From the IMG/VR virus record IMGVR_UViG_2541047745_000005, positions 1-29,610 of that record: DNA of 29,610 nucleotides, one strand, 5' to 3'. Shown here piece by piece: positions 1 to 29,610 of the stretch (within the stretch, counting starts at the first letter, position 1; the number at the start of each line of letters is the position of its first letter). Source of the stretch: a virus (taxonomy: Duplodnaviria > Heunggongvirae > Uroviricota > Caudoviricetes). The translations under genes and the position numbers were made by a program. The notes beneath the pieces are model-generated. The model was given only the letters and a program-made list of their open reading frames with translations. It was not told where the DNA came from and made no database searches.

Positions 1-165
1 CAGTGGTACACCACGCCTGCAGGGCATGTTCTACGTGTTAGCCTGGTTGACCGTGAATGTCAGAAGGTGGTTTGTGAACCGCTGGGCCGTAATTACCGCG
101 TCAGTATGCCGCTTATAGCCTTTCGCTCCGGAAAAAACATGAAGCATCTCGGAGGTGCAGCATGA
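1..165 (+). CDS. 3' end of an upstream gene (partial, 54 codons in window); unknown function
   Basis: Frame 1 is open from the window edge to a TGA at 163-165 that overlaps the next ATG at 162 as ATGA, suggesting translational coupling. No recognisable motif. Confidence 0.3.
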   Translation, partial: QWYTTPAGHVLRVSLVDRECQKVVCEPLGRNYRVSMPLIAFRSGKNMKHLGGAA

Positions 166-980
166 GTATGGAGCTGATGGTTAAAGCGATGAAAATTCGA
201 GTGGGTAATCCATTGCGAAAACTGGTTCTGATCAAGCTGGCTGATAATGCCAGCGATCAGGGTGAGTGCTGGCCCAGCTATCAGCATATTGCTGACCAGT
301 GCGAGATTAGCAAACGTTCTGTGATGAATCATATTGCGGCCCTTTGTGAGTCCGGGCTGGTAAAAAAAGTCACCCGGAAAGGTGAAAAAGGTAACTCAAG
401 TAATATCTATCTCCTTCATCTGGATGGTGCAGGAGATTCACTAGGGGGTAGTGCAAATAATTCACTATCTGGTGCAGCAAATTCACCAGGTAGTGCAGGA
501 GTTGCACCAGGGGGTAGTGCAGGAGATTCACCCAGAACCAGTCACTCTTTTGAACCAGTCAAAGAACCAGTCAATGAACCAATAGCTGTTGGTGCATCTG
601 TTGATGAGTCCGTGCGAGTTCGTTCAAACCGACCGGAATACTCTCCGGAGTTTGAGCAGGCATGGCTGGTATATCCCAAACGTGCTGGTGGCAATTCAAA
701 ATCTGCAGCCTTCAAAGCCTGGAAAGCCCGTTTGAATGAGGGGGTAAACCCCGAAACCATGCTGGAAGGTGTGAAACGCTACGCGGGCTGGGTATCTGCG
801 ATGGGTAACAGCGGCACACAATTTGTGAAACAGGCTGTCACGTTCTTTGGTCCGGATCGTCATTTCGAAGAATCCTGGGAAGTTCCTGCGGTATCTGCAG
901 CCAGACGCGAGGACCCGTACTTCAAAGCCAGTTACGACAACGTGGACTACAGCCAGATCCCGGCAGGATTCAGGGGGTGA
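162..980 (+). CDS. putative replication initiation protein (N-terminal HTH domain, low-complexity linker encoded by iterons, C-terminal domain)
   Basis: GGAGG RBS at 151-155 before ATG 162. N-terminal segment (LVLIKLADNASDQGECWPSYQHIADQCEISKRSVMNHIAALCESGLV) looks like a winged-HTH; internal Gly/Ser/Ala-rich linker coincides with direct DNA repeats, an arrangement like lambda O. Sits at the head of a nin-like gene string. Confidence 0.5.
   Translation: MSMELMVKAMKIRVGNPLRKLVLIKLADNASDQGECWPSYQHIADQCEISKRSVMNHIAALCESGLVKKVTRKGEKGNSSNIYLLHLDGAGDSLGGSANNSLSGAANSPGSAGVAPGGSAGDSPRTSHSFEPVKEPVNEPIAVGASVDESVRVRSNRPEYSPEFEQAWLVYPKRAGGNSKSAAFKAWKARLNEGVNPETMLEGVKRYAGWVSAMGNSGTQFVKQAVTFFGPDRHFEESWEVPAVSAARREDPYFKASYDNVDYSQIPAGFRG
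424..533. repeat. five tandem ~18-21 bp iteron-like direct repeats (consensus about GGT(A)GTGCA RRA RTTCAC YA) inside the replication gene; candidate ori
   Basis: Copies read directly at about 426-443, 447-467, 471-488, 489-509 and 513-533. Followed by 3.5 copies of GAACCAGTCA at 535-584. Confidence 0.5.
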
Positions 981-982
981 TC

Positions 983-1471
983 ATGAGTCTTTTGAATGAA
1001 GTTCAGAAATTCATTGAAGCCCATCCGGGGTGTACTTCCGGAGACATTGCGGATGCTTTTGCAGGTTACTCACGGCAGCGCGTTCTGCAGTCAGCAAGCA
1101 AGTTACGTCAGAGTGGGCGTGTGGCTCACCGTTGTGAAGGGGATACACGCAGACATTTCCCGCGCCTGACTGAGAGAGCGCAGGAGCCGGAACCACAACC
1201 AGTTCGTGAAACCAGACCTGTGCGCAATTTCTATGTCGGCACTAACGATCCACGGGTGATTTTGTGCCTGACCCGCCAGGCTGAAGAACTGGAGTCAAGG
1301 GGCTTATACCGTCGTGCTGCAACCGTGTGGATGGCGGCATTCCGTGAAAGCCACTCCCAGCCAGAACGAAACAATTTTCTGGCGCGTCGTGAGCGGTGCT
1401 TACGGAAAAGCAGCAAGCGCGCTGCATCGGGTGAAGAGTGGTATCTGTCAGGGAATTACGTGGGGGCTTAA
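983..1471 (+). CDS. hypothetical nin-region protein
   Basis: ORF translationally coupled to the upstream gene (GTG 977 or ATG 983 overlapping its stop) and to the downstream methyltransferase (TAATG at 1469-1473). Basic, Arg-rich; no motif I can name. Confidence 0.45.
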   Translation: MSLLNEVQKFIEAHPGCTSGDIADAFAGYSRQRVLQSASKLRQSGRVAHRCEGDTRRHFPRLTERAQEPEPQPVRETRPVRNFYVGTNDPRVILCLTRQAEELESRGLYRRAATVWMAAFRESHSQPERNNFLARRERCLRKSSKRAASGEEWYLSGNYVGA

Positions 1472-2124
1472 TGAGTAATAAATATTGCCAGGCGCTGGTG
1501 GAACTGCGGAACAAACCAGTCCATGAACTGAAGGAAGTGGGCGATCAGTGGCGCACGCCGGACAACATTTTCTGGGGAATTAACACCCTGTTTGGCCCGT
1601 TTGTTCTGGATCTGTTCACTGACGGTGATAACGCCAAATGTGCTGCGTATTACACGGCGGAAGACAACGCGCTGGCGCATGACTGGTCAGAACGTCTTGC
1701 GGAGCTTAAAGGTGCTGCCTTTGGTAATCCCCCATACAGCCGCGCCAGTCAGCATGAGGGGCAATACATCACCGGCATGCGTTACATCATGAAACATGCC
1801 AGTGCCATGCGTGATAAGGGCGGGCGCTATGTTTTCCTGATCAAAGCTGCCACCAGCGAAGTGTGGTGGCCGGAAGATGCGGACCATATTGCTTTTATTC
1901 GTGGGCGTATTGGTTTTGAACTGCCTGCCTGGTTTATCCCGAAGGACGAGAAGCAGGTGCCGACAGGAGCGTTCTTCGCTGGTGCTATTGCTGTTTTCGA
2001 CAAGACCTGGAAGGGACCGGCAATCAGCTACATCGGGCGCGATGAACTTGAGGCATGTGGTGAGGCGTTTCTGGCGCAGGTTCGCCAGCAGGCAGAAAAA
2101 CTTGTCAGGGAGATGGCGGCATGA
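1471..2124 (+). CDS. phage Dam-type DNA N6-adenine methyltransferase (orphan)
   Basis: NPPY catalytic motif (FGNPPYS) typical of N6-adenine methyltransferases; size about 217 aa; nin-region position as in many lambdoid phages; ATG 1471 overlaps the upstream stop. Confidence 0.8.
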   Translation: MSNKYCQALVELRNKPVHELKEVGDQWRTPDNIFWGINTLFGPFVLDLFTDGDNAKCAAYYTAEDNALAHDWSERLAELKGAAFGNPPYSRASQHEGQYITGMRYIMKHASAMRDKGGRYVFLIKAATSEVWWPEDADHIAFIRGRIGFELPAWFIPKDEKQVPTGAFFAGAIAVFDKTWKGPAISYIGRDELEACGEAFLAQVRQQAEKLVREMAA

Positions 2125-2447
2125 CGACGTTAACTCAATGCCAGCAGCAGGTGCTGGATATGCTGATTTCTTACCAGCAAGAGCGTGGCTTTCCGCCAAC
2201 CAATCAGGAGGTGGCAACCATGCTGGGATACCGTTCAGTGAATGCAGCGGTGGAGCATCTTCGCGCACTGGAGAAAAAAGGCGTCATCACGATAAAGCGT
2301 GGCGTGGCCCGGGGGATCACGCTTCATACCGCAGTGAAGGACGACGACAGCGAAGCGGTCGGTATCATCCGCGCACTGCTTGCCGGTGAGGAGAACGCCA
2401 GGTTGCGTGCAGCCCACTGGTTACATGAGAGGGGCCTGAAAGTATGA
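2121..2447 (+). CDS. LexA N-terminal DNA-binding-domain-like protein (no peptidase domain)
   Basis: Residues 1-70 align by eye with the LexA winged-HTH domain (QQQVLDMLISY..GFPPTNQEVATMLGYRSVNAAVEHLRALEKKGVITI..GVARGITL versus LexA [48 protein letters not shown]). Only 108 aa, so the autocleavage domain is absent. ATGA overlap with the methyltransferase stop. Confidence 0.65.
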   Translation: MTTLTQCQQQVLDMLISYQQERGFPPTNQEVATMLGYRSVNAAVEHLRALEKKGVITIKRGVARGITLHTAVKDDDSEAVGIIRALLAGEENARLRAAHWLHERGLKV

Positions 2448-28601: not shown

Positions 28602-28661
28602 TTTTTCTGAATCAGGTGATATTTCGCCTCTTCTCCTGTTTTTACAACAGGAGAAGCACTC

Positions 28662-29225
28662 ATGATTTACGGGTATGTTCGTGTATCAACAAATCATCAG
28701 GATACAGAGTTGCAACGTCTTGCACTTGAGTCAGCTGGCTGTGAGCGAATTTATGAAGAATATGCCAGTGGCAGAACAGCTAATCGCCCTGTGTTAAAGG
28801 AATTAATTACGGTGATGAAAAGTGGAGATGAGTTGATTGTCTGGAAGTTAGATCGGATAGGGAGAAATGTGCTGCATGCGCTATTGATGTTTCAAAATCT
28901 GCACGAAAAAGGTGTTAATTTTCGGAGTATTACAGATGGCGTAGACCTGAAAACAGCAAGTGGTCGCTATAATTTCCGTAATATTCTTTCTGCTGCGCAG
29001 TATGAATCTGATTTGAATAGCGAGCGAACTTTAGCTGGTTTGGCTATTGCCAGATCCAAAGGCCGGATTGGTGGGCGTAGACCGAAGTTTAGCGACGAGC
29101 AGTGGAAACAGATGGGAGCGCTCATAGCGGCAGGGAAATCACGGCGTTATGTTGCACGTATCTATAACGTTGGGCTATCAACCCTATATAAACGATTTCC
29201 TGTTACTGGCATTCAAACGAAATAA
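28662..29225 (+). CDS. serine recombinase, DNA invertase (Hin/Gin/Pin/Cin family)
   Basis: N-terminal GYVRVSTNHQ with catalytic Ser in the conserved position, resolvase-type catalytic domain, C-terminal HTH (RRYVARIYNVGLSTLYKRF); 187 aa; adjacent to the invertible segment. Confidence 0.9.
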   Translation: MIYGYVRVSTNHQDTELQRLALESAGCERIYEEYASGRTANRPVLKELITVMKSGDELIVWKLDRIGRNVLHALLMFQNLHEKGVNFRSITDGVDLKTASGRYNFRNILSAAQYESDLNSERTLAGLAIARSKGRIGGRRPKFSDEQWKQMGALIAAGKSRRYVARIYNVGLSTLYKRFPVTGIQTK

Positions 29226-29257
29226 TTTATTTAAAGAGTTATTTGTCTAATGTTGGA

Positions 29258-29296
29258 AGCCGCAGCCACGTCGTATGCAAGAACGTGCTGCGGCTG
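29258..29296. terminator. hairpin between convergent invertase and DinI-like genes (possible bidirectional terminator)
   Basis: AGCCGCAGCCACG ... CGTGCTGCGGCT imperfect 12-bp stem with a 13-nt loop; no strong U-tract on either strand. Confidence 0.3.
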
Positions 29297-29361
29297 GCTG
29301 GAGAACTTTCGATAGTGCGAGTATTGAATGATTTCCAGCCGTTACCGATTTTACGTGTTAA

Positions 29362-29610
29362 TTAGTGAACAAACCACTCGTCAGCAGATTCCCAGGTATC
29401 TTTCAGAGTCTCCTGAACAAAAGTTTTTGCAGAATCCTTATCTGCGGTGCGTGTAACAGAAAGGCCATCGTTGCTGGTGGCTTTTACGATCACCTCTACA
29501 TCGTCATAACGTTTACTGATGCGTCGGGTTAATTCTTCCTTTAACGCATCCACAGCACCGGTTGGCATTTTAGTCATTTTTTCTTTGGCTATGCAGATTT
29601 CAATACGCAT
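29362..29610 (-). CDS. DinI-family protein (SOS/RecA modulator)
   Basis: 82 aa; MRIEI.IAK...GA.DAL..EL.RRI......V.V...S.N.LSV......D......ETW.SADEWFV matches my recollection of E. coli DinI (C-terminal ETWESAD.WFV). Start codon lies exactly at the window edge, so the promoter is outside the window. Confidence 0.75.

Follow-up and report, generated by a model that had tools for sequence, protein, structure and literature searches.

Here we analyze a 29,610-nucleotide (nt) stretch of DNA from a Caudoviricetes virus (IMGVR_UViG_2541047745_000005, positions 1–29,610; hereafter the window). The window very probably represents the part of a temperate myovirus prophage that runs from the replication gene to the attachment end, and this prophage appears to be an intact member of the SfV/SfI/SfII/SfIV/e14 group. 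The lambdoid, HK97-type, and Mu-type lineages that make it up are real and were joined long ago. At the nucleotide level, the window is a mosaic of at least ten segments from more than three donor lineages. A preliminary description of the sequence as a three-way mosaic therefore holds for the deep lineages and falls short at the nucleotide level, where more than three sources are present.

Every protein of the window was compared with lambda, HK97, Mu, SfV, and e14 by tblastn, and the DNA was compared with the same genomes by blastn. This whole-window comparison, suggested in the preliminary description, yields no uniform identity to a single phage and reveals module-specific differences. SfV (NC_003444) matches the window at 88–98% nucleotide identity in five blocks (1–5554, 6076–6884, 8545–11193, 14789–20818, and 21477–26805), which amount to ~20 kb of the 29.6 kb. 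The genes form one long run on the plus strand, plus a short minus-strand block near the right end, and nearly all of them are assigned to a family in Pfam and PHROGs scans (Table 1). The SfV-like architecture proposed earlier is supported by nucleotide identity to SfV, SfI, SfII, and SfIV, combined with family and synteny tests. In addition, the open reading frames (ORFs) and the Pfam and PHROGs assignments show that all genes listed in the preliminary description are present in the order given.

In the phage collection, vB_EcoM-689R6, vB_EcoM-720R4, SfII, SfI, SfIV, and SfV rank highest. The best of them, 689R6 (ON470584), covers 84% of positions 1–24000 at 96.6% identity, in four pieces. 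Among 5426 complete E. coli genomes, 434 (~8%) contain an SfV-type prophage that matches no less than 80% of the first 25 kb at ~97% identity; coverage of this stretch peaks at 93%. No uniform match to one described phage is found in the phage collection, and none of the 5426 E. coli genomes is identical to the window. The matches are piecewise and none is uniform, which rules out the window as a copy of one described phage.

The structural and late proteins align over 98–100% of their length to proteins of isolated phages (SfV, 689R6, and SKA5) in tblastn searches. Therefore, the part of the prophage seen here looks intact, with the exception of the 3' end of the TerS gene. We infer that the phage is viable.

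Four observations weigh against the assignment to an intact prophage of this group. First, the left arm (integrase, immunity, and N-like functions) lies outside the window, so that intactness and inducibility cannot be judged from the window. Second, a source-level match is lacking, the closest match reaching 97–98% identity. Third, an 8-nt insertion at the 3' end of the TerS gene (9494–9520), relative to SfV and CP070071, replaces the last residues of TerS and uncouples the stop–start overlap of TerS and TerL. The C-terminus reads …NPFLTI* in the window and …NPFLKIIES* in the relatives, and the TerS stop codon is parted from the TerL start codon, with which it overlaps as ATGA in SfV and CP070071. 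Fourth, promoter scans at the cargo sites described below detect no sigma-70 promoter above the threshold or the shuffle expectation, so that the label 'moron', which implies independent expression, is putative.

The altered TerS C-terminus and the position of the left arm outside the window are also what a defective, e14-like cryptic remnant would present, and the e14 remnants are 96–97% identical to the window at the nucleotide level. However, the late genes from Q to the invertase are full length compared with those of SfV, 689R6, and SKA5 (98–100% coverage), whereas e14 is devoid of ~13 kb of these late genes. A cryptic remnant is accordingly quite improbable, and we retain the reading of the window as part of an apparently intact prophage.

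The preliminary description called the early and lysis genes lambdoid. By layout and by membership in the lambdoid gene pool, the term is appropriate: Q lies upstream of S-R-Rz/Rz1, and near-identical segments are found in lambda, mEp460, CUS-3, and Sf101. Positions 1–8475 are ~97% identical to mEp460, a phage with a lambda-like set of structural genes that includes a non-contractile tail. By similarity to lambda itself, the term does not apply. Only Q, R, Rz, and Rz1 match lambda proteins (34, 94, 62, and 41% amino-acid identity, respectively), and for the replication and 'nin' genes, tblastn searches that included O, P, and NinB–NinI find no counterpart in lambda at E ≤ 1e-3. At the DNA level, blastn matches to lambda are confined to positions 6451–7153 (89.8% identity) and a 100-base-pair (bp) piece near dinI.

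The replication initiator is 100% identical to SfV orf39; it is 31% identical to the allele in 689R6 and CP070071 (tblastn). Positions 1–904 are of the SfV allele, and the nucleotide breakpoint is at 905 (blastn), 75 nt before the stop codon; the last ~25 codons are common to the two alleles. The genes in the nin position (977–4659) encode proteins 86–98% identical to those of SfV orf40–45, and RusA and Dam are 38 and 29% identical to their HK97 counterparts. Q is 98% identical to SfV Q and 34% identical to lambda Q and HK97 Q. A likely late promoter and a tR'-like hairpin with a T-run follow the Q gene. A rho-independent terminator is annotated in SfV at the homologous place (33675–33710), and the SfV homology stops at 5554, within the tR' region (blastn). 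Judging from the protein families, Q would antiterminate at tR' and give rise to one long late operon. This operon would encode a lambda-type holin–endolysin–spanin lysis cassette, the cos/HNH/TerS/TerL packaging functions, an HK97-family head, and a Mu-type contractile tail and baseplate, and would end in a switchable fibre.

The 89.8% identical stretch spans R and the 5' ~250 nt of Rz and is 86% identical to HK97 (blastn); within Rz, near-identity to the lambda protein extends over the first ~83 residues. The earlier impression that R and the N-terminus of Rz are close to lambda is thus correct. The holin gives no tblastn match to lambda S, though Pfam assigns it to the lambda S family. The C-terminal half of Rz and all of Rz1 are of a different type, common to mEp460, and the near-identity to lambda breaks off at 7153, just at the start of the embedded Rz1. 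Therefore, the interacting parts of the spanin travel together.

The packaging genes (HNH endonuclease, P27-type TerS, and TerL) are positioned at the putative genome end, where the cos site is assigned by homology. The packaging proteins are 93–98% identical to those of SfV, and TerL is 26% identical to HK97 gp2. The head cassette that follows (11194–14788) has no nucleotide match to SfV (blastn), and its portal and capsid proteins are 28 and 26% identical to the SfV counterparts. Instead, the cassette is 98–100% identical at the amino-acid level to e14 ymfR/beeE, 689R6, and CP070071. The same alternative head cassette was reported for SfI and SfIV (PMC3636060, PMC3851460), and the SfIV head proteins were assigned to the HK97 family (PMC3851460).

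HK97 gp3, gp4, and gp5 are 32, 36, and 26% identical to the portal, protease, and capsid proteins of the window. The module has the HK97-type order of portal, S78 protease, and PF05065 capsid, without a separate scaffold gene. The Pfam domain of the capsid protein begins at residue 115, and the alignment with HK97 spans residues 191–339 of the HK97 protein. Residues 6–68 give a weak coiled-coil-type match, which fits a delta domain. The packaging and head genes are HK97-like, as previously proposed, in families and order, though with only 26–36% amino-acid identity.

At the left edge of the head cassette, the breakpoint (11193) precedes the TerL stop codon by 61 nt, and the final 19 residues of TerL vary together with the type of portal cassette that follows. 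TerL ends in …KEPDDFLSSLDPDDDLLIL and is combined with the SfV-type portal in SfV, SKA5, and 181.1; the other end is combined with the e14-type portal in the window, 689R6, and CP070071. Such co-variation would fit a TerL tail that serves as a portal-docking element. Two breakpoints respect protein partnerships, that of the TerL tail with the portal and that of the Rz C-terminus with Rz1.

The description of the tail as Mu-type is well supported, with the families arranged in the order of Mu and eight proteins 29–45% identical to Mu proteins. In particular, gp38 and the sheath are 42 and 36% identical, and N, P, and gp45–48 (Mu gp43–48) are 29–45% identical and in the same order. For the tube, chaperone, and tape measure, similarity to Mu is seen at the Pfam level only. 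The first part of the tail (15998–20816) is 98–99% identical to SfV, and the baseplate (21501–26498) is 98–100% identical (amino-acid level). The genes point to a contractile-tailed myovirus.

The combination of this head type with this tail type is also present in SfV, phiP27, ST64B, and Pantoea phage AH07. Therefore, the join is old. If the window were a recent direct hybrid of lambda, HK97, Mu, or their close kin, its junctions would be recent scars. R and the 5' part of Rz, at ~90% nucleotide identity to lambda and 86% to HK97, are of the kind expected from such a cross, as are positions 8237–8494 and 27560–27893, which are 94–95% identical to HK97. However, the head (26–36% amino-acid identity to HK97) and the tail (29–45% to Mu) are far more distant and have no nucleotide match in those modules, the same join recurs in the four phages above, and the head–tail boundary consists of overlapping genes and has no scar. 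We consider a recent hybrid of this kind extremely improbable; a direct cross of lambda, HK97, and Mu is ruled out by the identity levels.

The chassis formed by the old joins is overlaid by recent recombination of an ordinary kind within the lambdoid pool, and the breakpoints are sharp. The recent swaps comprise the replication allele, the C-terminal part of Rz plus Rz1, the TerL tail plus portal, protease, and capsid, a segment after the lysis genes that is shared with P22-like phages, the fibre ends, and a phi80-type invertase. In addition, three insertions of low G+C content (GC) are found just downstream of terminator-like hairpins, two at functional module boundaries and one inside the tail. 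The regions with no nucleotide match to SfV include positions 6885–8544 (Rz C-terminus, Rz1, a 50-residue ORF, and the Rha gene) and 26806 to the end (variable region of the fibre, invertase, and DinI).

The combination of lambdoid genes, an HK97-type head, and a Mu-type tail was already published with SfV, and it carries little weight as a discovery. The SfV architecture is attributed to Allison et al. as cited in the SfI paper (PMC3636060), and the SfI and SfIV papers describe it again (PMC3636060, PMC3851460). For SfI, the published account is that of a mosaic drawn from SfV, e14, and lambda, in which orf3–7 resemble e14 and not SfV (PMC3636060). The window is useful for teaching, as it shows cleanly how phage mosaicism can have two layers, one of ancient joins between modules and one of recent cassette exchanges whose breakpoints are sharp.

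Three gaps in the SfV-like chassis (5426–6078, 7374–8545, and 20817–21500) were noted before as AT-rich. Their GC values are 0.41, 0.45, and 0.32, compared with 0.526 for the whole window; they are the deepest troughs to the left of the fibre region, and their edges coincide exactly with the flanking stop and start codons, in agreement with the earlier coordinates.

The first gap lies between Q and S, the slot that holds the stx genes in Stx phages. CP070071 has the same insertion, and SfV and 689R6 lack it. The insertion encodes a Cys-rich protein of 80 residues with three CxxC motifs (CSVC, CPKC, and CPAC) and a terminal CC, followed by a hairpin and T-run of its own (~5968–6002). Among the relatives, the gap between Q and S measures 487–2340 bp and contains one to three ORFs, or tRNAs in the case of SfI. 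The window and CP070071 carry the Cys-rich ORF, SfV and mEp460 carry a DNA methyltransferase gene and other ORFs, and SKA5 and 181.1 carry other small ORFs. SfI has tRNAs at this site (PMC3636060), unlike the window, in which no tRNA genes are found. In SfIV, the stretch between Q and the lysis genes was published as a low-GC moron and is borne on an insertion sequence (PMC3851460).

The second gap, between Rz and HNH, is shortest in SfV (26 bp) and longest in the window (1172 bp), and its ORFs differ among the relatives. Positions 7374–8494 are ~96% identical at the nucleotide level to the DNA found at the same place in three P22-like podophages (CUS-3, Sf101, and vB_EcoP-720R6), and also match HK620 and HK97 in part; over the 8237–8494 portion, the identity to HK97 is 95%. 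Neither SfV nor 689R6 nor CP070071 has the Rha gene. Neither the 80-residue nor the 50-residue ORF has a Pfam match, and both belong to PHROGs families of unknown function.

According to the preliminary description, the insertions coincide with module junctions, which would act as hotspots for gene acquisition. The boundaries between Q and S and between Rz and HNH are true functional boundaries and are clearly variable: nearly every relative compared has a different cargo there. All three gaps are, in addition, low in GC. The third gap does not conform, since it lies between the tape measure and N, which are neighbours in Mu itself, and is thus inside the Mu-type tail module; only a single cargo family, present or absent, is seen there. 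Moreover, the boundary between the HK97-type head and the Mu-type tail (~15500–16000) consists of overlapping genes and carries no cargo, and the largest recent swap (11194–14788) starts inside TerL, ends at a start codon, and carries no cargo either. The idea that AT-rich insertions mark boundaries of differing ancestry and act there as acquisition hotspots is therefore doubtful, although it retains some plausibility; it stands for the junctions between Q and lysis and between lysis and packaging, and not for 20817–21500. What the insertion sites have in common is better described as a terminator-like hairpin just before them, where a gene cluster ends, than as a boundary of ancestry.

The cargo in the third gap is a gene of the phrog_8976 family, with a hairpin and T-run after it and before N. 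A signal peptide and two invariant cysteines characterize the encoded protein. Pfam gives no match for it, its PHROGs family is of unknown function, and none of the 11 homologous clusters in a large protein collection is named. The AlphaFold2 model displays a confident alpha/beta fold with no informative structural match. The gene is present in 85 of the 5426 E. coli genomes, in SKA5 (94.7% amino-acid identity), and in 181.1, and about 20% of the SfV-like prophages of E. coli have it between the tape measure and N. SfV, 689R6, and CP070071 lack the gene and have only a 35–60-bp spacer with a hairpin. Pantoea phage AH07 has a homologue (40% identity) in the same slot, also poor in GC. In HK97, the gp15 moron sits beside the tape-measure gene. 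By analogy with it, the phrog_8976 protein might be more than random cargo, namely a periplasmic accessory of the tail type, for example one that provides superinfection exclusion or receptor masking against tails of the same type; we offer this as a long-shot suggestion.

The constant part of the tail fibre ends at an invertible segment. Homology of the fibre to SfV, e14, 689R6, and SKA5 stops at 26805–26809, and the sole long inverted repeat within 26400–28800 pairs positions 26786–26805 with 28576–28595. The two 26-bp crossover sites to which this repeat extends have the same form as the Mu gix sites at the annotated boundaries of the G segment. The left site is identical to the left site of e14, and an exact-pattern scan of genome contigs gives no match to the right site. 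When the segment is inverted in silico, the constant 97 residues are fused in frame to the minus-strand ORF, yielding a fibre of 207 residues in place of 248. The invertase would thereby exchange, at the two sites, the C-terminal receptor-binding part of the fibre together with its chaperone. In SKA5, positions 27207–28117 are inverted relative to the flanks, with breakpoints at 26805 and 28576. Therefore, both orientations are represented among close relatives. In e14 as well, the tfa homology runs in the opposite direction. The full combination seen in the fibre switch is rare: it is covered to at least 80% in two genomes, although pieces of it occur in 2684 genomes.

The invertase is 99.5% identical to that of SKA5, 79% to those of phi80 (PinL), mEp237, and HK225, 56% to e14 PinE, 52% to P1 Cin, and 51% to Mu Gin (amino-acid identity). 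The switch was initially likened to that of e14, with a Pin-type enzyme. The switch itself, its layout, and its left site agree with this comparison, but the invertase is nearer to phi80 PinL than to PinE. Judged by sequence, the switch is a Din-family system with the Mu/e14 layout and an enzyme of the PinL clade.

Beyond the invertase, a strongly folding element of ~100 nt (29256–29355) precedes dinI, which adjoins the integrase gene and the att site in relatives. The element is 91% identical to lambda 24160–24256 (b region) and 97% identical to HK97 20942–21041, which abuts the annotated sib site of HK97. The predicted RNA fold has an energy of −46.7 kcal/mol (z = −5.5). No Rfam family reaches its gathering score, and the element has a sub-threshold match to the CssrB 3' hairpin. 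In the FDAARGOS_1287 prophage (28461–31118 of the compared locus), which lies near prfC, an invertase fragment is followed by cdtA-cdtB-cdtC (cytolethal distending toxin type I) before dinI. Therefore, the fibre-distal end is another cargo site in this group of phages.

Table 1 Features of the window
Feature	Position	Strand	Basis
Replication initiator (HTH_36/DnaD_N-like), SfV orf39 allele	162–980	+	Pfam
PerC-like/YfdN	977–1471	+	Pfam
Dam	1471–2124	+	Pfam
LexA-DNA-binding-like	2121–2447	+	Pfam
RusA	2444–2833	+	Pfam
KilA-N	2853–3662	+	Pfam
DUF968/HNHc	3664–4659	+	Pfam
Late antiterminator Q	4673–5425	+	Pfam Antiterm, 6.9e-54
Likely late promoter TTGCAT-17-TAAGAT and tR'-like hairpin/T-run	5457–5559	+	Sequence; promoter inferred
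Putative moron 1 (between tR' and S), GC 0.41	5555–6075	+	No SfV nucleotide match
Cys-rich 80-residue ORF, phrog_7682	5714–5956	+	PHROGs
Holin S, MKM dual start	6088–6429	+	Pfam Phage_holin_3_1
Endolysin R	6433–6909	+	PHROGs endolysin; no Pfam match
Rz	6906–7373	+	Pfam Phage_lysis
Lipoprotein Rz1, embedded in Rz	7126–7332	+	Pfam Rz1
50-residue ORF, phrog_11822	7361–7513	+	PHROGs
Cargo 2 between lysis and packaging, GC 0.45	7374–8545	+	Gap coordinates
Terminator-like hairpin	7548–7567	+	Sequence scan
Rha/ORF11CD3 regulator or anti-repressor-like protein	7681–8259	+	Pfam/PHROGs
HNH endonuclease	8546–8896	+	Pfam
cos by homology	8954/8955		SfV genome ends map here (blastn)
TerS, P27-type	9013–9507	+	Pfam
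TerL	9521–11254	+	Pfam
Head cassette, e14/SfI/SfII type, including last 19 TerL codons	11194–14788	+	blastn, tblastn, Pfam
YmfR	11266–11448	+	e14 ymfR match
Portal (PF04860)	11448–12689	+	Pfam
S78 prohead protease	12631–13317	+	Pfam
HK97-family capsid (PF05065), N-terminal extension of ~110 residues	13332–14537	+	Pfam
66-residue ORF	14587–14787	+	ORF map
gp6-like connector	14790–15113	+	Pfam
Head-closure protein	15110–15520	+	Pfam
Neck/tail-completion protein	15495–16001	+	PHROG 879
Tail terminator	15998–16558	+	Pfam
DUF2635/Mu gp38	16567–16737	+	Pfam
Sheath (Mu L)	16721–18217	+	Pfam
Tube	18217–18573	+	Pfam Tail_tube
Chaperone	18573–18842	+	Pfam Phage_TAC_7
Frameshift-type ORF overlapping chaperone	18809–18991	+	ORF map
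Tape measure	18984–20816	+	Pfam PhageMin_Tail
Putative moron 3 inside tail module, GC 0.32	20819–21476	+	No SfV nucleotide match
Signal-peptide protein, phrog_8976, 164 residues; possible start 20898	20916–21410	+	PHROGs
N/DNA-circulation	21501–22829	+	Pfam DNA_circ_N
P/gp44 hub	22826–23905	+	Pfam GpP
gp45	23905–24453	+	Pfam Mu_Gp45
gp46	24450–24878	+	Pfam GP46
gp47/J	24865–25923	+	Pfam Baseplate_J
gp48/YmfQ	25914–26498	+	Pfam Mu_Gp48
Tail fibre, 248 residues; constant part 26502–~26792, then variable C-terminal part	26502–27248	+	PHROGs tail fibre
Left 26-bp crossover site, TTCTCCCAAACC AA GGTTTTCGAGAG read on minus strand	26779–26804	-	Inverted repeat I1
Invertible segment, ~1.8 kb	26793–28589		Inverted sites, Pfam
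tfa	27248–27841	+	Pfam Caudo_TAP
tfa'	27813–28262	-	Pfam Caudo_TAP
Alternative fibre end	28256–28585	-	Pfam Gp53-like_C (segment scan)
Right 26-bp crossover site, TTCTCCCAAACC AA CCTTTCAAATAT	28577–28602	+	Inverted repeat
Serine DNA invertase, Din family, Ser9	28662–29225	+	Resolvase 3.4e-36, HTH_7 1.8e-11
Strongly folding conserved element of ~100 nt between invertase and dinI	29256–29355	+	blastn, RNA fold
DinI-like protein	29362–29610	-	Pfam

Among known phages, SfV, SfI, SfII, and SfIV have the same gene order as the window from the replication gene to the N-terminus of the fibre. SfV shares the cos position, HNH-TerS-TerL, and the Mu-type tail. It differs in having a head cassette of the other type (26–28% amino-acid identity), a different Rz C-terminus and Rz1, and different cargo between Q and S, whereas the window carries the Rha cargo and the phrog_8976 gene. 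In SfV, the fibre and tfa genes are followed by gtrABV-int; the window has the invertible segment, the invertase, and DinI instead. No gtr genes (O-antigen modification) are found within the window, and gtr with the integrase after the fibre is a feature of the subset of Shigella serotype converters. The gtr cassette defines this Shigella subset, and not the virion or chassis group.

The portal–protease–capsid cassettes of SfI, SfII, and SfIV match that of the window, whereas SKA5 and 181.1 have the SfV-type head cassette in its place. SKA5 (OR670062) has positions 14789–26805 in common with the window at 97% identity, but differs in its head cassette, lysis cassette, and fibre ends, and its segment is flipped. 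The lysis cassette of 181.1, a close relative of SKA5 from E. coli, is of the GH19 type. 689R6 has another replication allele, other cargo, and another Rz, is devoid of the phrog_8976 gene, and encodes a Pin-like invertase that is only 56% identical. Prophages of E. coli, such as that of FDAARGOS_1287, are among the best overall matches.

e14 is 96–97% identical to the window over the 3' part of TerL, ymfR, and the 5' part of the portal gene, and again over J, ymfQ, and the fibre N-terminus, and it has the same layout of fibre, tfa, tfa', fibre', and invertase. Unlike the window, it has lost everything between the 5' end of the portal gene and gene J (~13 kb), its right site differs after 15 nt, and PinE is only 56% identical. 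We reject e14 as an independent fourth donor; it is a deleted and decayed SfV-like prophage, whose remnants retain this identity.

The more distant comparisons separate the modules. Lambda has the same order of replication genes, nin-position genes, Q, tR', S, R, and Rz/Rz1, but its head and tail are unrelated in type. HK97 resembles the window in HNH beside cos, TerS, TerL, portal, S78 protease, and a capsid with an N-terminal extension, and the connector and head-closure proteins of the window are gp6/gp7-like. HK97 differs in that the amino-acid identities are only 26–36% and its tail is lambda-like and non-contractile. The closest named invertases, phi80 PinL and those of mEp237 and HK225 (79% identity over 97% of the length), belong to lambdoid siphoviruses, where, unlike in the window, they serve a side-tail-fibre switch of non-contractile-tailed phages. 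Compared with Mu, the window is without a transposition module, has an extra gene between the tape measure and N, and encodes an invertase only 51% identical to Gin. Nevertheless, gp38, L, M, chaperone, tape measure, N, P, gp45–48, fibre, tfa, tfa', fibre', and invertase follow one another in Mu in the same order as in the window.

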